A DNA stretch of 64,000 nucleotides from Gemmatimonadota bacterium (GCA_025357945.1 JANYLJ010000054.1:136607-200606), one strand, 5' to 3'; shown: positions 51,817 through 64,000, numbered from the stretch's first letter. Notes: generated by a model not told the origin, from the letters alone. Numbers and translations are program-made.

Positions 51817-53091
51817 GTGACAGGGATCGCCGAGGGCCCGGCAGTAGTGCTGCGACGTTGTTACGCGGCTGCGGTTGAAGCCGTCCAGCCGGAGGCAGCG
51901 CTGCGCGGCCCCCTGCGCGACGTCGACCCGGGCCGGTCACCGTGCTGGATCATCAGCGTGGGCAAGGCATCGCACGGGATGGCGCGAGCGATCATCGGGT
52001 GGCTGGCCGAGCACGGTCGGGCGCCGAGTGGCGGGATCGTTGTCGCCGCGGAGGGGCTACCTGCGCCACACGCTTCCCTGCAGTCGCTGGTTGGCGACCA
52101 CCCCATCCCGGGTGCCGCGTCGGCGCGCGCGGCAGTGGCCATCGCCGAACTGCTCGACGTGATCCCGGCGAATGCCGAGGTGCATGTTGCGATCTCCGGC
52201 GGTACCAGCGCTCTGATCGCCGGACCACTGCCGCAACTCCGAGCCAGCGATGTCGCGCGAACATTCGCGCTGCTGATGTCGTCGGGACTCGATATTCGCG
52301 AGATGAACGCCGTGCGCAAGCGGGTCACCCGATGGAGCGCCGGACGGTTGGCGCTGGGACTTGGCTCCCGGCGTACCCATGTCTGGGTCGTCTCCGATGT
52401 GATGGGTGACGACCTCAGCAGCATCGGATCGGGGCCCTGCACGGGTGACGCCTGGACCAGCGCGGAGGTTGGTGCGATGCTGGCTGACCGCGGGCTGCTT
52501 GCGGCACTGCCGGCTGCCGTACAGGATGCTATGAAACAGGAGACGCCAAAACCGGACGACGAATTCCTTTGTTCGATCACACCGCGCATCGTGGCGAACA
52601 ACAGCATCGCGCTCGCCGCTGCAGCAGCAGCGGCGCGGCGGCTCGGCATCAGTGCGCAGGTGACAGTAGATCCATTGCGAGGCGAAGCGGCACCGATGGG
52701 CCGCGAGATCGCGACTGCGATGCGGCACCGAGATGGCGCGCCGTGCATCAGGATCTGGGGCGGTGAAACGACCGTGACGATCATGGGCGATGCCGGGATT
52801 GGCGGCCGATCGCAAGAGCTGGCACTGGCGGCGGCGGAAGCATTGCGCGGCACGGACGGCGTGCTGCTCGCGGCCGGTACCGACGGCCGTGATGGTCCGA
52901 CGGACGCGGCCGGCGCGCTCGTCGACGGAGCCACGTGGGTCCGGATCGCCGCCGCTGGGCACGATCCCGCCGCGGACCTGTTACGTCACGACAGCTACGC
53001 GGCCCTCGACGCGGCAGGCGCCCTCGTCAAGACGGGTCCGAGCGGAACGAACGTCATGGACGTCGTGATCACGGCTACCGGGTGGCGCTGA
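51817..53091 (+). CDS. glycerate 2-kinase (DUF4147 + MOFRL; formerly annotated as TtuD hydroxypyruvate reductase)
   Basis: GTG start. SVGKASHGMA, ISGGTSAL, WGGETTV, LAAGTDGRDGPTDAAGA. Confidence 0.8.
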   Translation: MTGIAEGPAVVLRRCYAAAVEAVQPEAALRGPLRDVDPGRSPCWIISVGKASHGMARAIIGWLAEHGRAPSGGIVVAAEGLPAPHASLQSLVGDHPIPGAASARAAVAIAELLDVIPANAEVHVAISGGTSALIAGPLPQLRASDVARTFALLMSSGLDIREMNAVRKRVTRWSAGRLALGLGSRRTHVWVVSDVMGDDLSSIGSGPCTGDAWTSAEVGAMLADRGLLAALPAAVQDAMKQETPKPDDEFLCSITPRIVANNSIALAAAAAAARRLGISAQVTVDPLRGEAAPMGREIATAMRHRDGAPCIRIWGGETTVTIMGDAGIGGRSQELALAAAEALRGTDGVLLAAGTDGRDGPTDAAGALVDGATWVRIAAAGHDPAADLLRHDSYAALDAAGALVKTGPSGTNVMDVVITATGWR

Positions 53092-53473
53092 GCAGCTCCC
53101 GCATCATGATCCCGTGGGCCACCGCGACGTCCGGTGAGCGCTGGACGAACTCGAAATAGCGTTGCTGAAAATCACTTCCGACGTCGTTCGGATGGAGCAA
53201 CTCGCGCGCGGCCGCGATCAGCGCGGTCACCCGAAGCCCCGCCTCCACGGAGTCGTCGGTCATCGCTTCGTCCATCGCGGCGATGAGGGCGGTCATCGGC
53301 CGTAGCCACTGGAACCATGGGTCGTTGATTGCGAGTTGCAGGAACTCGGCATTGCCGGGCACCCGCCCGTTCATCGCTTCCCAGGCGATTCGCTCCGCAG
53401 CGAGCAGCTCGCGGTGCAATCCGAGCACTGCGTCGCGCATCGGATTGAGGCGGTCGGCAAGATCGGTGGTCAT
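53075..53473 (-). CDS. hypothetical all-helical protein
   Basis: ORF 53075..53488, ATG at 53473 preferred (MTTDLADRLNPMRDAV...). No family recognised. The 3' end overlaps the convergent glycerate kinase gene by 17 nt. Confidence 0.4.
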   Translation of the reverse strand: MTTDLADRLNPMRDAVLGLHRELLAAERIAWEAMNGRVPGNAEFLQLAINDPWFQWLRPMTALIAAMDEAMTDDSVEAGLRVTALIAAARELLHPNDVGSDFQQRYFEFVQRSPDVAVAHGIMMRELLSATR

Positions 53474-53549
53474 CGCACACCCCCCCAATGGCGTCGTCGA
53501 CAGAAGAACGTCGCGTCGCGCCCGACGGTTCCGGTGCGACCGTAACGTC

Positions 53550-54029
53550 CTATGGCCGGGTCGCCGGCTTGGCCAGTACGTAGCCCGCCCCGATCAGGAC
53601 GGTCAGGTCGACCACGCGAGCGCGATCCGGCGCGTCAATCACGACCGCCTGGCCGAGCGCCTCGATGACGCGCCCCACACCGGTGGTGTCGCCGCGCCGA
53701 ACCAGAACCTGGCTTTGTTGCCGCCCGGAAAGCGCACTGTCGGCGTTGCCGAAGTAGACGACGTCCAGGCCGGCGTGACGCAACGCCAGCATCCCGACGC
53801 GCGCGATGCCCGGCACCTTGGTGGAATTGAGCACCTCGACGGTGACCCGGTGCGGGAGTTCGGCACGTGTCGGCAGACGGCTGGCTGCCGCCGTCTGGTA
53901 GGCATGGCGCAACGCCCACGTCAGGCCGGCCGCGAGCAACAGCACGCCGCTGCCGAGCCACCAGCGAGGGCGCGCCGTCAGCCGCACACGGCGGCCCGGA
54001 ATGCGACGCTCTCGGGCGGCAGCGTCCAC
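53550..54029 (-). CDS. LytR_C (LytR/CpsA/Psr C-terminal) domain membrane-anchored protein
   Basis: TM WWLGSGVLLLAAGLTWAL, then VTVEVLNSTKVPGIARVGMLALRHAGLDVVYFGNA...VLVRRGD. The start may be a few codons downstream. Confidence 0.7.
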   Translation of the reverse strand: MDAAARERRIPGRRVRLTARPRWWLGSGVLLLAAGLTWALRHAYQTAAASRLPTRAELPHRVTVEVLNSTKVPGIARVGMLALRHAGLDVVYFGNADSALSGRQQSQVLVRRGDTTGVGRVIEALGQAVVIDAPDRARVVDLTVLIGAGYVLAKPATRP

Positions 54030-54502
54030 CCTTGGGCAATGGCGTGGTTCAGGCGACGCGTCACCACCTGGCGGAGGACACCGTCTGGATCATCGGGAAA
54101 GGCGATGGCGAGGGCGCCGCGCTCGACTCGGTCGAAGCTGCGCCCGGGCTCGAGAAAGTCGGCGCAATACAGTGCCCGACCGGTGCGCCCCCATCCTTCC
54201 CATCCCACCGAGTGCCAGCGCACAGCGCTGAGCAGATCGGCGTCGGTCTCGCCCTCGAGCTCGGCGCGTGCCGCGGCGGCCGGCCCGTGGCGCAACTCGA
54301 CCGGCCCTTCGATATCAGGAGCCCAGCGCCGCATTTCGGCCTCCGGCGCGTCGCGGAGCGCGTCGTGCAGCCACCCAGCGCGCAACCAGCGGCGCGCCTC
54401 ATCGGACGGGAGCCGGAGCGCGTCCGACCACCGACGGAGCACCGCGACGACCCGCTCGACGTGCGCTACGCGCGACGACGACACGATCGACCACGGCGGC
54501 AA
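53978..54502 (-). CDS. HD-domain protein, YqeK-like, short
   Basis: WLHDALRD, ELRHGPAAAA, AVRWHSVG, LYCADFLEPGR. The track start is TTG; GTG at 54482-54484 is an alternative. Confidence 0.55.
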   Translation of the reverse strand: MPPWSIVSSSRVAHVERVVAVLRRWSDALRLPSDEARRWLRAGWLHDALRDAPEAEMRRWAPDIEGPVELRHGPAAAARAELEGETDADLLSAVRWHSVGWEGWGRTGRALYCADFLEPGRSFDRVERGALAIAFPDDPDGVLRQVVTRRLNHAIAQGWTLPPESVAFRAAVCG

Positions 54503-54527
54503 GCTGTCACTCGACTGGCGTGACGTG

Positions 54528-55373
54528 TCAATCTCCGAAAATAACGTTGTCGATCAAACGGGTGCGACCGACCCGTGCCGCCAGGGCGACAATGGTGCCC
54601 CGGGTCACGCGCGCGACGGGTGCAAGGGCGTCTGGTTCAACGATCGCGATGTAGTCCGCGACCACTCCGGGCACGGCGGCCAGAACCTGTCCCACGAGCT
54701 GACGGAGTGCGTTGGCGTCCGACTCACCCGCGCGCCAGCGCGCCTCCGCAGCGCGGAGCGCGCGCGACAGCGCGAGTGCCGCGTCGCGTTCCGCGGGAGA
54801 GAGATAGACGTTGCGCGAACTCATCGCGAGTCCGTCGGCTTCGCGCACGATCGGCGCAAGCAAAAGGTGAATCGGAAAGTTGAACTCCCGGATCATCCGC
54901 CGGATGAGTGTCGCCTGCTGGATATCCTTCTGGCCGAAGCAGACGACGTCCGGGCCAACGATGTTGAACAGCTTCGCCACGACCGTGAGTACGCCGTCGA
55001 AGTGGCCAGGCCGAACGGCACCCTCCCAGCGCGCCGCAACCTCACCGCCCGAGAGACGCAGGTCGGCGCCGGTGCCGTATATCTCGTCGACCGTAGGTGC
55101 AAAGAGCAGGTCGACGCCGCGCTCGGCGGCCAACACGCGATCCCGCTCCAGGTCACGTGGATAGCGATCGAAGTCCTCGCCGGGCCCGAACTGCAGCGGG
55201 TTGACGAAGAGGCTCATGACCACGGTATCACTCTCGCGGCGCGCGGCATCGACAAGGCTCAGGTGCCCGGCGTGCAGGGACCCCATCGTGGGCACCAGAC
55301 CGATGCGCCGGCCCGCGCTTCGCTCGGTTGCGAGCAAGGCACGAAGCGCGGCGATCGCGGTGACTTCGCGCAT
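54528..55373 (-). CDS. panC: pantoate--beta-alanine ligase
   Basis: GLVPTMGSLHAGHLSLV, VVMSLFVNPLQFGPGEDFDRYPR, FGQKDIQQ. Confidence 0.95.
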   Translation of the reverse strand: MREVTAIAALRALLATERSAGRRIGLVPTMGSLHAGHLSLVDAARRESDTVVMSLFVNPLQFGPGEDFDRYPRDLERDRVLAAERGVDLLFAPTVDEIYGTGADLRLSGGEVAARWEGAVRPGHFDGVLTVVAKLFNIVGPDVVCFGQKDIQQATLIRRMIREFNFPIHLLLAPIVREADGLAMSSRNVYLSPAERDAALALSRALRAAEARWRAGESDANALRQLVGQVLAAVPGVVADYIAIVEPDALAPVARVTRGTIVALAARVGRTRLIDNVIFGD

Positions 55374-55377
55374 TGGC

Positions 55378-56181
55378 CTATTCGAATGAATGGGCGTCGT
55401 CGGGATACGCCCCGCTGCGTACGTCGGCGGCGAAGTGGGCGACCGCCTGCGTTACTTGGCCGGCCAGGTCGCCGTACCGCTTGAGGAACCGCGGGGAGAA
55501 TCGATCATTGAGCCCGAGCATGTCATGCAGCACGAGCACCTGGCCGTCGCAACCGTTGCCGGCGCCGATGCCGATCGTCGGGACCTGCACCATGGCGGTG
55601 ATCTCCGCAGCGAGTGCCTTCGGCACGAGTTCGAGCACGACGGCGCACACGCCGGCCGCCTCGAGTGCGACGGCGTCGTCGCGGAGGCGGCCGGCGCTCA
55701 CATCGTCACGTCCCTGCACCCGTGGCCCGAGCAGGTTGATCGACTGCGGCGTGAAGCCGAGATGGCCGATGACGGGGATACCGCGATCGACGAGCGCGCG
55801 GATGGTCGGCGCCATCGCCACGCCACCTTCCAGCTTGACCGCATGGCAGTCGGTTTCCGCGAGGACGCGCCCCGCGTTGCGCACCGCCTCCTCGACGCTC
55901 ACCTGATACGAGAGGAATGGCAGGTCGACGATCACCGGCGTATGATCGGCGCCGTGACGCACGCTGGCCGCGTGATAGATCATCTGGTCGAGCGTCGCGC
56001 TGAGCGTCGATTCCCGACCGGCGAGTACCTGGTTGAGCGAGTCGCCCACCAGGAGCAGGTCCACGCCGGCAGACTCGAGCAGGCGCGCGAAGAGTGCGTC
56101 GTAGCACGTGAGCATCACGAGCTTGCGGCCCTCGCGCTTGCGCGCGCTCAGTTCAGGCAGGGTCAGATGTCGGTCAGCCAT
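55378..56181 (-). CDS. panB: 3-methyl-2-oxobutanoate hydroxymethyltransferase
   Basis: LVMLTCYDA, LLVGDSL, AVKLEGG, GHLGFTPQS. Confidence 0.95.
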   Translation of the reverse strand: MADRHLTLPELSARKREGRKLVMLTCYDALFARLLESAGVDLLLVGDSLNQVLAGRESTLSATLDQMIYHAASVRHGADHTPVIVDLPFLSYQVSVEEAVRNAGRVLAETDCHAVKLEGGVAMAPTIRALVDRGIPVIGHLGFTPQSINLLGPRVQGRDDVSAGRLRDDAVALEAAGVCAVVLELVPKALAAEITAMVQVPTIGIGAGNGCDGQVLVLHDMLGLNDRFSPRFLKRYGDLAGQVTQAVAHFAADVRSGAYPDDAHSFE

Positions 56182-56584
56182 GCATCTCCAACGCCGCGAT
56201 CTCGCGGGCCCAGAAGACCCGATCGCGCAGGCCAGGGTGTGGCAAACTCAGTACCGGTAGATCGCAAAGCAGGTCGCCGTAGCGCACGAGGTCAAGGTCC
56301 AATGTCCGCGAGCACCACTTTGACGTCCGCACCCTTCCTGCCAGGCGCTCGATTTCATGACAGCGATGCAGCAGGATCCGCGGCGCGATGGCGGTTTCGA
56401 GCCGGAGCATCTGGTTGAGGTACGCTGGCTGGTCCAGGCCACCGAGCGGGGCCGTTTCCTCCACGACGCCGGCAGTCATCCCGCGTATGCCGGCGGTTTC
56501 CGCCAATGCGGTGCGGGCCAGCCCGAGAAAGGCGGCCCGGTCACCCAGGTTACTGCCAACGGCGATCCACGCACGTACCGACAC
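56174..56584 (-). CDS. folK: 2-amino-4-hydroxy-6-hydroxymethyldihydropteridine diphosphokinase
   Basis: GTG at 56582-56584 (1 nt after the trpA stop) preferred over the track TTG at 56599. AWIAVGSNLGD, RTLDLDLV, LPHPGLRDRVF. Confidence 0.85.
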   Translation of the reverse strand: MSVRAWIAVGSNLGDRAAFLGLARTALAETAGIRGMTAGVVEETAPLGGLDQPAYLNQMLRLETAIAPRILLHRCHEIERLAGRVRTSKWCSRTLDLDLVRYGDLLCDLPVLSLPHPGLRDRVFWAREIAALEMHG

Positions 56585-56585
56585 G

Positions 56586-57380
56586 TCACCGCTCGTCAAG
56601 CGCCGCGCGGATCCGGGCGAGGAAGCGGCCGGCGGCCGGCACGCCCTCGCGGCCCAACACGTCGACCAGGGCGCTGCCGATCACCACACCGTCGGCGAGG
56701 TCGGCGACGGTACGCGCCTGCGCCGGAGTAGACACGCCAAACCCGACCGCGATCGGCAACGGCGACACGTCGCGGACACGAGCGATCGATGCCGCGAGTT
56801 CCGTTGCCACGGTGGCCGATGCGCCGGTCACGCCCAAACGCGCGATCAGGTAGAGAAATCCCTCGGCGCCCGCGACGGCCCGCTGCATCCGATCGCGCCG
56901 GGTGGTCGGTGCCACCAGGCGGATGAGGTCGAGCGCGGACGCCTGCACCGCCGCCTCAACGGCGGGGTCGGCGCCCGATGGCAGGTCGGTCAGCAGCAAC
57001 CCGGCCACGCCCGCGGACGCGGCGTCGCGCAAGAGCCGATCGACGCCGTACCGCAGCACCGGATTGAAGTAGGTGAACAGCACCACTGGTGCCCTGAGCT
57101 GCGAATCGGCGATCAAGGCCAGCGTCCCTGCCAGCGTCATCCCGTTGGTGAGTGCCCGGAAGCTCGACGCCTGGATCGTCGGGCCGTCGGCGAGCGGGTC
57201 GCTGAACGGCACGCCGACTTCGAGAATGTCGGCGTACTCGTCGGCGACGCGAAGGGCGGCACGCGAGTCGGCGATGGTCGGGAACCCCGCCGTCAGGTAT
57301 GGCACGAGCACGGTGCGCCGCGTTGCTCGCAGCGCACCCCACGCCTCGGTCAGCCGGGACTCAGATGAAGAAGTCGCCAA
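56586..57380 (-). CDS. trpA: tryptophan synthase alpha chain
   Basis: LVPYLTAGFP, LEVGVPFSDPLADGPTIQ, GFGVSTPAQ. TTG start, overlapping the last 20 nt of the HD-GYP gene. Confidence 0.9.
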   Translation of the reverse strand: MATSSSESRLTEAWGALRATRRTVLVPYLTAGFPTIADSRAALRVADEYADILEVGVPFSDPLADGPTIQASSFRALTNGMTLAGTLALIADSQLRAPVVLFTYFNPVLRYGVDRLLRDAASAGVAGLLLTDLPSGADPAVEAAVQASALDLIRLVAPTTRRDRMQRAVAGAEGFLYLIARLGVTGASATVATELAASIARVRDVSPLPIAVGFGVSTPAQARTVADLADGVVIGSALVDVLGREGVPAAGRFLARIRAALDER

Positions 57381-58818
57381 CGACCAGGCCGTAGCGTTCG
57401 GGGGCCGTCACCTTGACAATCGTCCGGGGGTACCCGCCGTCGGCGTCGGGCACTGAAAGATCCACGATCTTGCCCGGCGGCGTGACGCGCCCACCGCTCG
57501 CATCGACCGCGATTCGAACGATCGGGCGATGAAGTTGCTCGGGGTCCGGACTCGCGCCCGCCACAATCGCGACCTCGAAAGTGTCGAGGATGACACAGGT
57601 GCCCACCGGATAGATGCCGAGCAGGTTGATCAGCGCCTTGACCAGGGTCGGGTCGTAGCCGCGGCCCGGATTCATCCACATCTCCTTGAGCACGGCGTCC
57701 GCTTCCAAGGGCACGTTCTGGTAGACCCGGCGCGTCGTCGCTGCGTCGTAGCCATCGGCGACGGCGACCAGCCGGGTGAACAGGCCGATACGGCGTGGGC
57801 GCACCGGACGAGGGTAGCCGCTCAGATCGATCTTCATGTGATGCTCGTGCGCCGCCAGGATGGCGCGGTAGGGCAACGCCTCGCCTTCGCGCATCTTGAA
57901 CAGCGTGAGCGTTCCCAACCACGGATGGGACTGCAGCGTGCGCCATTCGTGATCCTCGAGTGACGTCGCCTTGTTGAGGATCGCCGGATCGAGCCTCGCC
58001 TTGCCGATATCGTGCAACAGCGCCGCCAACCCGAGGTCGTAGAGCTGCAGGCGATCGAGGCCGAGGCGTTTGCCGAGGGCGACCGCGAAGATGCAGACAT
58101 TGACCGAGTGGGTGAACGTGTATTCGTCGTATTCGCGCAGCGTCGTCAGGCCGGTGATCGAGAGCTCGTTGTCCATGACCTGATCCACGATCACCTGAAT
58201 CGCCCGCTTGAGCCGGCGTGCACTCGGCATCCGGCCCATGCGCACGCCCTGCACGACGTCGCGGGCGGCTGCCACGCCATGGGCGTAGGTGCGCTTGGCG
58301 CGCTCGAGCCCTTCGTCGCCTGGGCCCGCGTCGCTACTCGCGCCGGCGCCGCCTTCGGTGGCGGGTCCGACCGCGAGACGAACGATGTCAGCTTCTTGCA
58401 TCCGCTGCGTCAGCATCTCGACTCGCTCATCGGGATCGATGTTGGTGGGCAGCGCGGCCAGAATCGATAGAAACGCCTGCCATTCCCACCGGGTGATGCC
58501 GTCCTCGACGCGCAACAGTCCCACGCCGCAGCTCTTCATCAACGCAACAAATCCGCTGAACGCGGCGAAGTTATCGAGGCCCAATCGGAGCCGAGTCTGG
58601 TTGATGAAGATGAAATCGCCGACCAGCCGGATTTCGATCCCGCCCTCGTGCGCGCAAAGTGCGGTGGCCGAGGCGTGCAACTCGTCGAGGGCGCGTTGCA
58701 CGGCGGCATTCTCGACCGGATAGAGCTTGAGTGCGCGCTGCGCACCATGAATCGAGACCAGTAACGCACGCCCCGACTGGCGCAGCGCGCCGTCGTCCCT
58801 CACCGTCGTCTCGGTCAT
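57361..58818 (-). CDS. HD-GYP domain protein (putative cyclic-di-nucleotide phosphodiesterase) with uncharacterised N-terminal domain
   Basis: Trimmed to ATG 58816-58818 (ATGA overlap with the HEAT gene stop). HSVNVCIFAVALG, AALLHDIGK, HEHHMKIDLSGYPR. Confidence 0.85.
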   Translation of the reverse strand: MTETTVRDDGALRQSGRALLVSIHGAQRALKLYPVENAAVQRALDELHASATALCAHEGGIEIRLVGDFIFINQTRLRLGLDNFAAFSGFVALMKSCGVGLLRVEDGITRWEWQAFLSILAALPTNIDPDERVEMLTQRMQEADIVRLAVGPATEGGAGASSDAGPGDEGLERAKRTYAHGVAAARDVVQGVRMGRMPSARRLKRAIQVIVDQVMDNELSITGLTTLREYDEYTFTHSVNVCIFAVALGKRLGLDRLQLYDLGLAALLHDIGKARLDPAILNKATSLEDHEWRTLQSHPWLGTLTLFKMREGEALPYRAILAAHEHHMKIDLSGYPRPVRPRRIGLFTRLVAVADGYDAATTRRVYQNVPLEADAVLKEMWMNPGRGYDPTLVKALINLLGIYPVGTCVILDTFEVAIVAGASPDPEQLHRPIVRIAVDASGGRVTPPGKIVDLSVPDADGGYPRTIVKVTAPERYGLVVGDFFI

Positions 58819-60542
58819 GCCGGCCACTCCCGCAACGCAGTATTTGCCGCGCTGCGAACGACCGGTTCCTTGTCGGTCGTACACTGCTCCACCACGCTGC
58901 GGGCCGCCAGGTTGCCCACCTTCGCCAAACCGAAAAGCGCCGACGCGCGCACGTCGGCGGACACCCGGCGACGAAATACGCCCCGCGGTTCCAGCAATTC
59001 CTTCAGCTTCGGGACGGCCGGGGCGCCCGCCATCGCGCCGTAGGCCTCGAAGATCGCGCGACGTTCACTCCGCTCCCATGCGCGCTCGGTGCCGGCGAAC
59101 AGCATCGCCTCCAGCCGATGAAGCAGCCCACCGGACCCACCCCGGGCGATCAGCAGCGTCAAGGCGCCCTGCCGCACCGCGCGCTCCGGATCGTCGAGCG
59201 CCGTCTCGATCGCAGTGACCGCGGTCGACGTACCGAGTTCGCCGAGGGCGCGGACTGCGGCGAGGCGAAGCGGCTCGTCGCCGGTACGGAGGTGGTCAAT
59301 AATCACCGGCACGAGTTGCGCCAACCCCAATCTGGCCGCGAGCGCGATGGCGGGAACCAGGGCGTCCTCCGGCCCACTGCCAATCAGTGCGGCGAGCGCA
59401 TCGGGATGGTTTCGCGCCAGTGCGTCAACGCTGGACTCCAGCACCCGACGGGCGGTCGGATCGACGATGCGCCCCAGGTGGGCGAGCACGACGGGAAGAG
59501 CGGTCGCCTTGAGCTCGCGAAGCACCTCACCGACGTCTTCGTCCGTGGCACGCGCGGAATGATCGGCGAGCGCGCGAAACAGTTGTTCAACAAACTCCGG
59601 CGTGGAGAGCTGATCTTCGAACGAGAGCACCGCGAGGTGCAGCTCCTCGTCCAGCCCGGGCGCCCGCGCGGCGATCAGCCGCAGTTCGCGAAGAATGCGC
59701 GCCACGGCGCGGAAGCCGCCGACCGCAAGTTGCATCGGGAGGATCTCTTCCAACAGGGCGATCGCTTCACGACGTACCGCCGGCTCCCGCTGCGACTCGA
59801 GCACGTCGAGCAGGGCGTCGATCGCAGCCTGCCGGATGTCGCGGTGGTATTCCTCGTCCAGTTCACTCCGGATCAGCCGGATTTCCGCTTCATCGAGGAA
59901 ATACGGCGTCGCGTCGAATTCATCAAGATCGACGACGCCGTAGCCGCCGCCGCGCGCATCCGCCGACCCCGCTGGCGCGCCACGCCCCGCCGCGACTTCC
60001 TGGCGCGCGTCGATGCCGCCGCGTCCGCTGTCCGGGGCGTGGAGATCGCGCGCCGAACTGTCCTGGATGAACTCGATGCCGTCGCCAAGCACCTCGACGA
60101 AGGTGTATGAAATCAGCACGAACTCCTGCTCCCACAACAGCGTCAGCAGGTCGTCGGTCGCGTCCGTCGGCAGCATCCTCGCCTGATTGACCACCCGCAG
60201 GAAGCGGACGATCTCCTCCGTTTCGACGCCGGGGACGAACGTGAGTCGCCGCAGTCCATCCTTGTACAGCTCCCACGCCAGTCCTTCGGCCTTGTTCGTC
60301 TGCCGGAAGACCGCGGTCTCCTCCCAGGTGATCTGCTCTTCCTGAATCTCGAGCACCAGTCGCCCGGTCGCGTCCCAGACCGGTGCAAAGGATTCGGTGA
60401 CCTGCTGGAGCGTGCGCTGGTAGACCGGGTTGTTCGGCAGGTACATCTGCAGCGCGCGCTGTCCCTTGGCGAGCATCCGCAGGAGTTCTTCCACGGCGCG
60501 GACATCGGTCGCCGTCGGCGGGACGCCCGGGCGCGCAGTCAC
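58815..60542 (-). CDS. HEAT-repeat protein with an N-terminal domain resembling that of the adjacent HD-GYP protein
   Basis: GTG at 60540-60542 overlaps the trpB stop (GTGA). C-terminal HEAT/PBS-lyase-like repeats ([36 protein letters not shown]..., [14 protein letters not shown]). Confidence 0.7.
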
Positions 60543-61774
60543 GACGGCGTCCCGATCGTGGCGGCGACGTGCGCCACATCCTTGTCGCCGCGCCCGCTGA
60601 GGCAGAGCAGGACCGCTTGATCGCGGCTCCAGCGACCGCGCGAGCGGGTGATCCACGCGATCGCGTGCGCGGTTTCGAGTGCGGGGATGATGCCCTCCAG
60701 TCGCGCCATGAGCTGGAACGCTGCCAGCGCTTCACCGTCGTCGACGGCGTGGTACGTCACGCGCCCTTCGTCGCGCAGCCAGCTGTGCTCCGGTCCGACG
60801 CCCGGGTAATCGAGCCCGGCCGAGATCGAGTGTGCCGGCAGGACCTGACCGTCCGCGTCCTGCAGCAAGTAGGACAGCGAGCCGTGCAACACGCCGGGCG
60901 TTCCGGCGGAGAGCGTCGCGCTGTGACGGCCGGTCGCGATCCCCTCCCCTGCCGCTTCGACGCCGACGAGCGCGACCGCATCGTCGTTCAGGAATCCCGA
61001 GAACATCCCGATCGCGTTGGAGCCGCCGCCGACACACGCCACAACCGTATGGGGCAAGCCGCCGATTCGTTCAAGCACCTGGGCACGTGCCTCGCGACCG
61101 ATCACCGACTGAAAGTCGCGCACCATGCGGGGGAACGGGTCGGGACCGACGACCGACCCGATGATATAGTGCGTCGTCGGAACGTTCGTCACCCAATCGC
61201 GCAGCGCTTCGTTGGTGGCATCCTTGAGCGTTCGCGTCCCCGAGGAGACCGGCACGACGGTCGCGCCGAGCAATCGCATCCGGTACACGTTGAGCGCCTG
61301 GCGGGCCACATCCGCTTCGCCCATGTACACGACACACTCGAGATCGAAACGGGCACACACGGTCGCTGTCGCCACGCCGTGCTGGCCAGCCCCCGTCTCG
61401 GCGATGATGCGGCGCTTGCCCATTCGTCGCGCGAGCAACGCCTGGCCGATCGCGTTGTTGATCTTGTGGGCGCCGGTGTGATTGAGATCTTCCCGCTTGA
61501 GGAGCACGCGCGCGCCTACCAGGTCGCTCAGGCGCGGTGCCTCCGAGAGTCGCGATGGGCGCCCGACGACGTCCCGCAGCAGCGTTTCGTATTCCTCCCA
61601 GAACGCGGCGTCGCCGCGCACCGCATCGTAGAGGGCACTGAGATCGTCGAGCGCCGCGACCAGTGTCTCGGGGACGTACCGGCCGCCGTAGGGACCGAAG
61701 CGTCCATCAACGGCGGTTTCACGCGGCGGAGCGTGCGGCAAGGACGTTCTCCAGGAAGCGGGCCAGGCGGTCAC
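60539..61774 (-). CDS. trpB: tryptophan synthase beta chain
   Basis: [42 protein letters not shown] start at 61774, or TTG at 61741. Confidence 0.95.
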
Positions 61775-62366
61775 GATCCTTGACGCCCGGGGATGATTCG
61801 ACGCCGGAACTTACATCCACCGCAGCCGGCCCGACCACCCGGATTGCCTCGCTGACGGAGTCCGCGGTCAGTCCGCCGGCGAGCACGAAGCGGATCGCCG
61901 GTGCGGCAACGCGCGCCGCGCGCGCCAGGTCGAGCGCGATGGCGATCCCTTTCCCGCCACTGCCGCCCGAGGCAGTCGCCTCGATCAGCAGCGCGTCGGC
62001 GTCGATCGCGGCTGCGGACAGCGTGGCGGCCAGGTCAATGTCGGCGCGAACCGGGACCACGTTCCACACCTCCAGTCCGTGCGCGTGCAGCTCGCGCGCG
62101 ACGTGCCGGGGATGTTCACCGTGCAACTGGATACCCGTGAGCCCTGCGGCGGATACTGTCTCCAGCATCGTCTGAAGTGGCTGCGGACCGAAGACCCCGA
62201 GCACCGGGACGCCGCCAGCGGCGGCGACAATCGCGCGTGCCTGCGCCGTCGTCACCACGCGCGGACCGCTGGCAAACACGACGCCGAGGCGCCACGCCCC
62301 GTGTGCGGCCGCGAAGGCCGCGTCATCGGGCCGGGTCAGGCCACAGATCTTTGCTTCAACGGACAC
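61719..62366 (-). CDS. trpF: phosphoribosylanthranilate isomerase
   Basis: [30 protein letters not shown] at 62364-62366 preferred; the track start at 62396 is also GTG. Confidence 0.85.
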
Positions 62367-63141
62367 GGCGTAATATCCCGCTGAGTTCGCCCGCACGCCC
62401 GACCGGATCAGCGGCCTTGGCCAACGCTGATCCGATCAGCACGGCATCTGCACCAGCGTCACCCGCCGCCGAGACGTCGGCGACCGTGACCATCCCGCTC
62501 TCGGCGATGGCGATACAATCGGACGGTATCGTCTTGAGGAGATGCCACGCGGCCTGAGTGTCGATCGAAAAGTCATCGAGATCCCTCGCGTTGACGCCGA
62601 TCACGGTGGCCCCTGCGTCGAGCGCCCGCGCAACTTCAGCCGCGGTGTGGATTTCGACCAACGGCGTGAGGCCGCAGGTGACCGTGAAATTGAGCAAACG
62701 ACGCAACACCGCCTGCTCCAGCGCCCGGACGATCAACAGCACGGCGGCGGCCCCGGCGGCCCGCGCCTCGAGTACCTGGCTCTCGTCGAGGATGAAGTCC
62801 TTGCGCAGAACCGGCGCCGCCACCGCCGCGACGACCGCGTCGAGATCTGCCATTGATCCGCCAAAAAACGCCTGATCGGTCAACACCGAGATGGCCGCCG
62901 CACCACCCGCCGCGTACCCGCGCGCGAGTGTCGCGGGGTCGAGCGATTCGTTGATCGCGCCGGCCGAAGGCGACCGGCGTTTCACCTCGGCGATCAATGC
63001 CACCGTCGGCCGCCTGAGGGCCAGGGCGAAGTCGGGCGGGCGGCGACGATTGGCGGCAGCGCGTTCCAGTTCCGGCGTGCGAGCACGGAGTGCGGGAAGT
63101 TCGCGCCGAGTCGAGTCCAGGATTGCGTTGAGGGTAGCCAT
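62356..63141 (-). CDS. trpC: indole-3-glycerol phosphate synthase
   Basis: LIAEVKRRSPSAG, AISVLTD, LRKDFI, IGVNARDL. Confidence 0.9.
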   Translation of the reverse strand: MATLNAILDSTRRELPALRARTPELERAAANRRRPPDFALALRRPTVALIAEVKRRSPSAGAINESLDPATLARGYAAGGAAAISVLTDQAFFGGSMADLDAVVAAVAAPVLRKDFILDESQVLEARAAGAAAVLLIVRALEQAVLRRLLNFTVTCGLTPLVEIHTAAEVARALDAGATVIGVNARDLDDFSIDTQAAWHLLKTIPSDCIAIAESGMVTVADVSAAGDAGADAVLIGSALAKAADPVGRAGELSGILRRVR

Positions 63142-63147
63142 CTTGCG

Positions 63148-63162
63148 GTTCGGGTTCCGTTC
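63148..63162. promoter_or_regulatory. GTTC-N7-GTTC direct repeat upstream of lexA (candidate LexA box), within a cluster of five GTTC tetramers
   Basis: Read directly: GTTCgggttccGTTC. Further GTTC at 63154, 63174 and 63180. The repeat ends 49 nt upstream of the lexA GTG. Confidence 0.3.
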
Positions 63163-63210
63163 GGGTAGCTTCGGTTCGTGTTCTCTTCGCCAATCTCATG
63201 GGAGCTTGCC

Positions 63211-63819
63211 GTGCCGCTCACCCGAAAGCAACACGAGATCCTGGACTTTGTCTCCGCCACGATCGAACGGAATGGTTACGCGCCGAGCTTCGAAGAGATC
63301 GCGGAACACTTCGGATACCAGTCGCTCGCCACGGTGCATGAGCATCTCAGTAACCTGGAGCGGAAGGGCTACATCCGTCGCGGGTACAACGAAAGCCGGG
63401 CGATCGAGGTGCTCCCGCCGCGGGGAACCACCGGCGCGACCGAAATCCCGCTGCTCGGCCTGGTTGCCGCCGGATTCCCGATCGAATCGATGATGAGCGG
63501 TGAGGTCGTACCGGTGCCGGACACGATGTTGCCGCGGCGGGGACCCAACTACGCCTTGCGCGTCCGCGGTGAGTCGATGGTCGACGAGCACATTCGCGAC
63601 GGTGATCTCGTCGTGGTCAACGGGCGGGACTCCGCCGACAATGGCGAGATGGTCATTGCCCTGGTGAACGGTGCCGAAGCCACCGTCAAGCGGTTTTACC
63701 GGGAGCCGGGCGGTTGGATCCGCTTGCAACCGGCGAACACGACGATGCGCCCGCTGCGGTATCAGGAACGCGATGTGCTCATCCAGGGCGTGGTGGTGGG
63801 AGTGATCCGGAAGTATTGA
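63211..63819 (+). CDS. lexA: LexA repressor
   Basis: GTG at 63211 with GGAG 6 nt upstream. (M)PLTRKQHEILDFVSATIERNGYAPSFEEIA, AAG cleavage site (VAAGFP), GESM, TVKRF. Confidence 0.9.
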   Translation: MPLTRKQHEILDFVSATIERNGYAPSFEEIAEHFGYQSLATVHEHLSNLERKGYIRRGYNESRAIEVLPPRGTTGATEIPLLGLVAAGFPIESMMSGEVVPVPDTMLPRRGPNYALRVRGESMVDEHIRDGDLVVVNGRDSADNGEMVIALVNGAEATVKRFYREPGGWIRLQPANTTMRPLRYQERDVLIQGVVVGVIRKY

Positions 63820-63841
63820 TGGTCCATGGGTCATTGGTGGC

Positions 63842-63975
63842 GTCATCCTGAGCGAAGCGCCCGCAGGACGCGCAGTCGAAGGACCTCGGCTCCAGGCGCA
63901 CTGGCTAGCTACATCGCGCGGAACCGGGGTCCTTCGACTGCGCAACGGCTCCGCCGATGCTTCGCTCAGGATGAC
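63842..63975. repeat. 134-bp nested inverted-repeat element (REP/MITE-like) downstream of lexA
   Basis: Outer arms GTCATCCTGAGCGAAGC (63842-63858) / GCTTCGCTCAGGATGAC (63959-63975). Inner arms GCGCAGTCGAAGGACC (63870-63885) / GGTCCTTCGACTGCGC (63928-63943). All four arms are perfect. Confidence 0.8.
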
Positions 63976-64000
63976 AGCGGTGCCGCGCGCCGCAGCGCCT

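Follow-up and report, generated by a model that had tools for sequence, protein, structure and literature searches.

A stretch of 64,000 nucleotides from a Gemmatimonadota bacterium (GCA_025357945.1 JANYLJ010000054.1:136607-200606; this whole stretch is hereafter called the window, and positions are counted from its first letter) carries two genes for a HEAT-repeat protein and an HD-GYP protein, inserted between the tryptophan synthase genes trpB and trpA. These two trp genes are normally adjacent and translationally coupled, and their products form the alpha2-beta2 tryptophan synthase. The order trpB-HEAT-HDGYP-trpA is a real and inherited operon layout that is apparently undescribed: 52 of 80 species-level loci have it, overlaps included, a recurrence among species representatives that places it far beyond chance, and the other 28 loci carry the pair beside lexA at a site free of trp genes. 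The reading that we favour, with a probability of about 0.6, is that an old two-gene signalling module was captured in a compact housekeeping operon, where it has been vertically inherited and hitch-hikes for its expression. The most conserved adjacency of the trp pathway is in this case split by 3.2 kb of signalling genes, and the split has been kept through the radiation of a whole order.

Gene organization between trpB and trpA

Both trpB and trpA of the window exceed the NCBIfam equivalog cut-offs and are bona fide orthologues. The 3.2 kb between the trpB stop (60539) and the trpA start (57380) hold two genes of the same strand, and the canonical adjacency is absent. The genes and the domains of their products are located as follows:

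60539..61774, minus strand: trpB, tryptophan synthase beta (TIGR00263, 601 bits against a cut-off of 392)
58815..60542, minus strand: open reading frame (ORF) of the HEAT-repeat protein, 575 amino acids (aa), GTG start (Pfam HEAT_2, E 5.7e-16)
60123..60542, minus strand: N-terminal alpha/beta domain of the HEAT protein, about residues 1-140 (hhalign and AlphaFold 2 (AF2) model)
57361..58818, minus strand: ORF of the HD-GYP protein, 485 aa, ATG start (Pfam HD_5, E 2e-16)
58363..58818, minus strand: N-terminal alpha/beta domain of the HD-GYP protein, about residues 1-152 (AF2 predicted local distance difference test (pLDDT) 86-94)
57619..58146, minus strand: HD-GYP catalytic domain, about residues 225-400 (invariant ligands, alignment to PmGH)
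57364..57618, minus strand: C-terminal extension of the HD-GYP protein, about residues 401-485 (conserved in the homologue alignment)
56586..57380, minus strand: trpA, tryptophan synthase alpha, TTG start (Trp_syntA, E 1e-77; TIGR00262, 223 bits against a cut-off of 102)

All three junctions overlap. The trpB stop (TGA, 60541-60539) and the start of the HEAT gene (GTG, 60542-60540) share the GTGA at 60542-60539, and the HEAT stop (TGA, 58817-58815) and the start of the HD-GYP gene (ATG, 58818-58816) share the ATGA at 58818-58815. The HD-GYP stop occupies 57363-57361, giving a 20-nt overlap with trpA, whose TTG at 57380 is the sole in-frame start retaining the conserved TrpA N-terminus. The starts chosen for the inserted genes (575 and 485 aa) fit their homologues (560-585 and 480-490 aa) better than the longest ORFs (613 and 507 aa). 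On gene coordinates, identities and the three junctions, the reading of the sequence and the Pfam and NCBIfam profiles agree with the initial annotation of this region. The GC content is 0.65-0.71 throughout the insert, with a flat composition in the window; a recent transfer of the pair was considered and set aside, a composition anomaly being absent from the window.

Conservation of the arrangement in Gemmatimonadota

One genome per species was scanned with the HEAT alignment. Relatives turned up in 359 genomes, and the window proteins were mapped onto the best 80 loci with a simple ORF caller, of which the few overlap outliers are artefacts. Three layouts were distinguished. Type A (39/80), the layout of the window, consists of lexA in the opposite direction, then trpC-trpF-trpB-HEAT-HDGYP-trpA-folK-panB-panC. 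Type B (13/80) has the same order with a gene of 693 aa between trpA and folK, and type C (28/80) has the opposite-direction lexA followed by HEAT-HDGYP, the 693-aa gene and folK or panC, without trpCFB and trpA. The trpD gene, found between truA and lexA in types A and B, is absent from every type C locus that includes truA (25 loci). Wherever the sampled Gemmatimonadota loci bear trp genes, the pair lies between trpB and trpA, and lexA adjoins the array in every locus of this phylum extending that far, making it the pair's only invariant neighbour there.

The junctions are conserved too. The overlap is of 4 nt between trpB and the HEAT gene in 47 of 52 loci and between the HEAT and HD-GYP genes in 65 of 78, and it ranges from 8 to 32 nt between the HD-GYP gene and trpA in 50 of 50. 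What had been noticed in a single genome is consequently a lineage-wide arrangement (52/80 loci, and the more distant locus L085 described below). An assembly artefact or a one-off rearrangement is refuted, since dozens of assemblies made independently show this order with these overlaps, among them multi-megabase contigs such as L008 (3.2 Mb), L014 (3.3 Mb) and L019 (2.4 Mb), and its probability is negligible. The partnership of the two genes proposed in the initial annotation is borne out as adjacency: in every locus examined, from Gemmatimonadota to Nitrospirota, they are adjacent and usually overlap by 4 nt.

At least 457 close homologues of the HEAT protein were retrieved; both inserted proteins have hundreds, the named ones being from Gemmatimonadales/Gemmatimonadota. 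Within clade A, the mean identity to the window copy is higher for the HD-GYP protein (74%) than for TrpA (67%), TrpC (62%) and TrpF (56%), which indicates strong purifying selection on the HD-GYP protein. One 6-kb contig (L007, JANWLS010000119.1), binned as Vicinamibacterales (Acidobacteriota), carries a type A locus typical of Gemmatimonadales, with 87% (trpB) and 82% (HD-GYP) identity to the window copies, and is probably mis-binned.

The product of the 693-aa gene of types B and C is a membrane protein with several passes that carries GAF and MCP signalling domains (e.g. L059:13900-15981, L043:13109-15193 and about 34 others). The gene overlaps trpA by 4 nt in the type B locus L059 and begins 4 nt past the HD-GYP stop in the type C locus L043. 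The HEAT, HD-GYP and GAF-MCP genes form a three-gene signalling set, inside which trpA is embedded in type B. The GAF-MCP gene is absent across the whole 64-kb window, and clade A, to which the window belongs, has lost it. From clade A to clades B and C, identity to the window proteins falls from 60% to 43% for the HEAT protein and from 74% to 58% for the HD-GYP protein, with TrpA at 67%/66% and TrpB at 82%/80%; this extra divergence of the pair coincides with the loss of the GAF-MCP gene in clade A.

A shared N-terminal domain

The initial annotation had pointed to similar N-termini in the two inserted proteins and suggested that they are paralogous. A BLASTP comparison of the HEAT and HD-GYP proteins gave no significant N-terminal match, and profile-profile alignment of the N-terminal domains with hhalign did, increasingly so as the alignments were broadened: E 1.8e-4 and a probability of 48.5% with type A alignments only, E 4.1e-7 and 92.7% with types A, B and C, and E 1.8e-11 and 97.3% over 113 columns with Nitrospirota and other representatives added. 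The controls against the other halves of the proteins gave E 0.11 and 0.62.

The predicted secondary structures follow the same order. In the AF2 model of the HEAT protein, the N-domain contains helices (H) and strands (E) at H11-33, H39-58, E62-66, E70-73, E76-80, H88-94, E99-102, H108-122 and H126-139; in that of the HD-GYP protein (pLDDT 86-94) they are at H9-32, H38-58, E60-66, E69-72, H81-96, E99-105, H110-122 and H129-142 (H-H-E-E-H-E-H-H-E with a last strand, over about residues 1-152), and the strings of the two models are nearly superimposable. For either N-domain, the Pfam, NCBIfam and PADLOC scans returned no family, and the N-domain profile found nothing below E 0.25 among PDB sequences. 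By profile and predicted structure, the two N-domains are paralogues and represent a hitherto undescribed alpha/beta domain (about 140 aa), in agreement with the earlier suggestion.

Occurrence outside the trp context and polarity of change

Searching a library of 1.84 billion proteins with the profile of the HEAT N-domain gave 2589 matching cluster representatives (E <= 1e-3). One of the more distant loci, L085 (33% identity), has truA, trpD, lexA and trpC-trpF-trpB-HEAT-HDGYP-trpA, followed by a convergent gene and without folK and the pan genes. In four others (L086, L087, L088 and L089; 24-34% identity), the HEAT gene is directly followed by an HD_5 gene in unrelated, trp-free neighbourhoods, and a protein search seeded with L088 led to homologues named Nitrospirota, Nitrospiria and Candidatus Manganitrophus. 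On a 4.3-Mb contig of Candidatus Manganitrophus (L090), the HEAT and HD-GYP genes overlap by 4 nt and are followed by relA/spoT (L090:11454-13631). On the untyped contig L087 (L087:6422-7906), the pair is divergent from a gene pair resembling aminodeoxychorismate synthase and lyase. The association with these alarmone-related (relA/spoT) and chorismate-related neighbours may be coincidental. The location between trpB and trpA was met only in Gemmatimonadota, and the trp-free occurrence in Nitrospirota and untyped contigs identifies the pair as an autonomous signalling module, present in at least two phyla and older than its trp context.

A neighbour-joining tree of the concatenated HEAT and HD-GYP proteins, rooted on the Nitrospirota pairs, was computed with 100 bootstraps. 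The three types together are monophyletic in 100/100 replicates, with the trp-embedded L085 outside them; types B and C are monophyletic to the exclusion of A in 100/100, and A and B in 0/100. The type C locus L077 falls inside clade B (96/100), the remaining type C loci being monophyletic (93/100). A tree of lexA, an independent but short marker, recovers A+B in 1/100 and B+C in 63/100. On these trees the embedded state is ancestral to the sampled Gemmatimonadales, where it has been passed on vertically with overlaps at all three junctions, and its loss is derived: trpD, trpCFB and trpA disappeared from the locus at least twice, in clade C and independently in L077, and the pair was kept. The disappearance of three pathway segments fits a decay or a relocation of the pathway, three separate insertions around the pair being much less likely. 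For the Gemmatimonas-like clade (type C, e.g. L043-L046, L050-L058, L072-L081), this hints at tryptophan auxotrophy or at a pathway that has moved elsewhere.

These distributions bear on a functional coupling to tryptophan, which the initial annotation implied. The pair would then sense tryptophan, indole or the state of the synthase, for example through the shared N-domain or by docking to TrpA/TrpB, and tune cyclic dinucleotides accordingly, and its site would be selected. The exact placement between trpB and trpA with intact overlaps in 52/80 loci and in the deeper L085 speaks for such a coupling, as does the type B trpA, flanked on both sides by signalling genes (HD-GYP, trpA, transmembrane GAF-MCP). 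However, the pair is equally conserved without a trp neighbour in Nitrospirota and other contigs, it has outlasted trpD, trpCFB and trpA at the clade C locus, and the array also holds folate and pantothenate genes, so that mixed content is the rule. Since the module lives without trp genes elsewhere, the implied tie to tryptophan synthase is weakened and we consider the coupling improbable. A more elaborate version, with the shared N-domain as a sensor or docking module tying dinucleotide turnover to tryptophan synthase or to the indole/tryptophan flux, and the gene order, with translational coupling unbroken along it, as a selected device linking metabolism and second messenger, is very improbable; if it were true, the type B layout, with trpA between the HD-GYP and membrane GAF-MCP genes, would represent its complete form.

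Predicted properties of the HD-GYP and HEAT proteins

Among PDB sequences, the HD-GYP protein best matches V-cGAP3 (5Z7C, E 1e-23), an enzyme specific for cyclic GMP-AMP (cGAMP), and it also matches PmGH (4MCW, E 7e-17); the top whole-chain Foldseek match of its model is Bd1817 (3TM8). Residues H237, H269-D270, K273, H298, H326-H327, D355 and G334-Y335-P336 are invariant in 37 homologues, and H237, H269, D270, H298, H326, H327 and D355 align to H189, H221, D222, H250, H276, H277 and D305 of PmGH. Tyr233 stands at the position of PmGH E185, where a Tyr is typical of the binuclear HD-GYP class, several members of which stop at pGpG (10.1101/2021.11.05.467447); this residue decides the assignment to the binuclear-metal subclass and leaves family membership unaffected. 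From these conserved residues, the protein is likely an active phosphodiesterase.

The signature motif departs in part from the canonical one, reading HHMKIDLSGYP instead of HHExh(D/N)GxGYP: HH, D and GYP are kept, the Glu is replaced by Met (Met328, invariant in the family) and the Gly by Leu. This raises the alternative of a catalytically impaired receptor or adaptor, the module acting through protein-protein interaction. The missing Glu and Gly and the invariant Met328 favour it, and inactive HD-GYP proteins of interaction type are documented (10.1101/2021.11.05.467447). Nevertheless, the Lys, the GYP and every metal-binding His and Asp are invariant in the present family, and in the inactive proteins on record it is the HD or HH residues themselves that are missing (10.1101/2021.11.05.467447), so we regard an impaired receptor as unlikely and retain the active enzyme.

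The catalytic domain is followed by an extension of about 85 aa, highly conserved and modelled by AF2 with low confidence, with short beta strands. It has no family in the Pfam, NCBIfam and PADLOC scans, in which PADLOC gave trivial repeat or HD matches only.

The HEAT_2 match of the HEAT protein scores 59 bits against a cut-off of 27.7. Its AF2 model has an overall pLDDT of 74 and shows an all-alpha solenoid from about residue 218 (pLDDT 80-95), for which Foldseek returned generic ARM/HEAT/alphaRep folds only. As a whole the protein belongs to no family in Pfam, NCBIfam or PADLOC.

The surrounding array and its control region

The inserted pair is part of a longer array on the minus strand, divergent from lexA, whose remaining genes and control region in the window are:

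62356..63141, minus strand: trpC, indole-3-glycerol-phosphate synthase, first gene of the array (Pfam IGPS, E 9e-73)
61719..62396, minus strand: trpF, phosphoribosylanthranilate isomerase (Pfam PRAI, E 5.6e-33)
56174-56599, minus strand: folK (Pfam HPPK)
55378-56181, minus strand: panB (ORF within the same-strand array)
54528-55373, minus strand: panC (ORF within the same-strand array)
63142..63210, no strand assigned: lexA-trpC divergent control region (promoter-like motif, TTCGG repeats)
63211..63819, plus strand: lexA, divergent (ORF; LexA_DNA_bind and Peptidase_S24 annotated on orthologues)

The folK, panB and panC ORFs (54528..56599) overlap or abut, extending the array in an order that is kept in type A. 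In types A and B, panD is usually located between panC and an HD-domain gene (e.g. L001:12297-12662); it is absent from the corresponding position of the window (54503-54527), and tblastn gave no panD match anywhere in the 64 kb.

In the window, the trpC ATG abuts the lexA control region, and 69 bp separate the trpC start from the probable lexA start (GTG 63211), the longest lexA ORF starting at 63178. Upstream of lexA, the motif CTTGCnnTTCGG...TTCGGGTAnnnT...TTCGGGnTCTnTTCG is conserved in about 75 loci of all three layouts. Read as CTTGCnnTTCGGnnnnCnTTCGGGTAnnnT..TTCGGGnTCTnTTCG, the same motif has the look of a sigma-70-like -35/-10 promoter, interleaved with three to four direct repeats of TTCGG (L005-L084) that are a candidate LexA operator of Gemmatimonadota. 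The -35 element directly adjoins the trpC ATG in type A and B loci, and the putative promoter of the array must overlap the conserved motif. GTTC-N7-GTTC, a LexA box of alphaproteobacterial type, was examined as a conserved operator and rejected, being present in the window yet in only 4 of 77 loci.

Membership of the whole array, and the pair with it, in the LexA (SOS) regulon has several points in its favour, namely the divergent lexA as sole invariant neighbour in Gemmatimonadota with a very short shared control region, a lexA-trpC gap of 40-85 bp in most type A and B loci, and the promoter-like motif with its TTCGG repeats in all three layouts. The rarity of the strict GTTC-N7-GTTC box counts against it, with the reservation that the operator of Gemmatimonadota may differ; moreover the TTCGG repeats may serve the autoregulation of lexA alone, and the Nitrospirota pair is not beside lexA. 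We therefore hold SOS control of the array to be doubtful.

A promoter and terminator scan of the region, of sigma-70 type and weak for this phylum, returned counts at or below shuffle expectation. Within the HEAT gene, towards its 3' end, a GC-rich hairpin of 9 bp precedes the T-rich tail CTTTTCGGTT (58938-58959, minus strand); as a terminator it was discarded, since such sites are as numerous as in shuffled sequence and this one overlies a conserved protein motif, and it is probably incidental. Rfam models, run over 53000-64000 at E <= 1, matched twice at chance level and revealed no attenuator, T-box or riboswitch.

The pair could alternatively be nested and transcriptionally autonomous, with its own promoter in trpB, a trpA promoter in the HD-GYP gene, and overlaps reflecting mere compaction. 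Signalling proteins are normally needed far below the levels of biosynthetic enzymes, and the pair of clade C is expressed without upstream trpCFB, from a region of 156-269 bp beside lexA, both of which would suit such autonomy. On the other side, the 4-nt overlaps are kept nearly without exception, a signature of termination-reinitiation coupling, and the scan, within its weakness for this phylum, found no promoter-like site inside the region. Transcriptional autonomy seems to us rather unlikely, and the overlaps together with the lack of above-chance promoter and terminator matches point to co-transcription.

Proposed expression and role of the inserted module

According to the capture reading, the pair would be expressed by read-through from the lexA-trpC promoter, within a gap-free super-operon comprising trpCFB, the pair, trpA, folK, panBC and further genes, and termination-reinitiation at the overlaps would carry ribosomes from trpB to the HEAT gene, the HD-GYP gene and trpA. 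The paralogous N-domains would mediate a heteromeric complex or a shared input, with the HEAT protein scaffolding or regulating the phosphodiesterase. The output would be the turnover of cyclic di-GMP (c-di-GMP) or a related dinucleotide and not tryptophan synthesis, for which reason the position within the trp genes would amount to expression hitch-hiking and not to a biochemical link.

Several points weigh against this reading. Throughout a deep radiation, the insert has kept both its precise place between trpB and trpA and its overlaps, which could reflect selection for a link to tryptophan synthase. The departure of the HHMKIDLSGYP motif could denote a weak enzyme or a receptor, and the AF2 model of the HD-GYP protein has pLDDT values below 50 over residues 296-344 and 405-485, in its catalytic and C-terminal parts. 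The evidence for a physical HEAT/HD-GYP complex consists of gene adjacency and shared domains. The promoter scan was restricted to sigma-70 and Gemmatimonadota promoters are poorly defined, so that internal promoters are possible. Finally, the trees were built by neighbour joining from the pair itself or from a short LexA alignment, and neither is a species tree.

The arrangement offers a natural test case of the distance over which foreign genes can pass on translational coupling with TrpA and TrpB kept in balance. The HEAT-solenoid and HD-GYP proteins sharing a new N-terminal domain constitute an undescribed module in at least two phyla, from which the study of cyclic-dinucleotide signalling in Nitrospirota and Gemmatimonadota can start. 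That the pair was repeatedly kept when trpD, trpCFB and trpA were cleanly lost around it also flags the Gemmatimonas-like clade for possible auxotrophy or relocation of the pathway.

Comparison with known systems

Full-text literature searches returned no paper on the HEAT and HD-GYP pair, its N-domain or the structure of the trp operon in Gemmatimonadota, and no work on HD-GYP proteins in this phylum. At the protein level, the HD-GYP protein resembles Bd1817 (DUF3391-HD-GYP), PmGH (4MCW), PA4781 (4R8Z) and V-cGAP3 (5Z7C) in having a core with the HD, HH, D and GYP residues, to which a non-catalytic N-terminal domain is joined via long helices. It differs from the Bd1817 family in that its N-domain is not PF11871: the match, at E 0.19, scores 12.7 bits where the cut-off is 27.8 and covers only residues 149-198, outside the core of the N-domain, and PF11871 matches none of 15 diverse N-domains. 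The whole-chain Foldseek similarity of the model to 3TM8 leaves room for a remote structural kinship to Bd1817. Unlike Bd1817 and stand-alone HD-GYP proteins, the present protein has two long helices preceding the strands, the HHMKIDLSGYP motif and the conserved C-terminal extension of about 85 aa, and a paralogue of its N-domain sits on a separate HEAT protein encoded directly upstream. The latter shares with bacterial HEAT/PBS-lyase-like repeat proteins (HEAT_2, HEAT_PBS) a HEAT/ARM solenoid over its C-terminal 350 aa or so, but scores 24 bits with the NCBIfam lyase models against a cut-off of 330, and its conserved N-domain and obligate HD-GYP neighbour mark a separate, undescribed family.

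At the operon level, trp genes are mixed with folate genes in the trpFBA-accD-folC cluster of Sinorhizobium meliloti (PMC6614838), and truA, accD and folC are conserved as flanks of trpFBA (PMC2395257). The array described here similarly combines trp with folate and housekeeping genes, folK and panBC coming after trpA, and truA and trpD lying beyond lexA. In those supra-operons, however, the foreign genes flank trpFBA, never split trpB from trpA, and none is a signalling gene.

A close precedent is the F-B-X-A order, an unrelated gene between trpB and trpA that is reported in Burkholderia, some Flavobacterium and one Sargasso Sea contig (PMC2395257, citing Xie et al. 2003); the role of these inserts is left open by its authors, who raise "morons" as a possibility (PMC2395257). 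The view of the initial annotation that the present arrangement is new to described trp operons accordingly stands for the HEAT/HD-GYP cargo and falls for the splitting of trpB from trpA as such, known in Burkholderia (PMC2395257). The Burkholderia and Gemmatimonadota loci, likened here by gene order alone, have in common that trpB and trpA of an otherwise ordinary trp cluster are separated by at least one unrelated gene on the same strand. In the Gemmatimonadota case, the insert is a two-gene signalling module of 3.2 kb in another phylum, with overlaps at all three junctions, and the same module also exists independently elsewhere.

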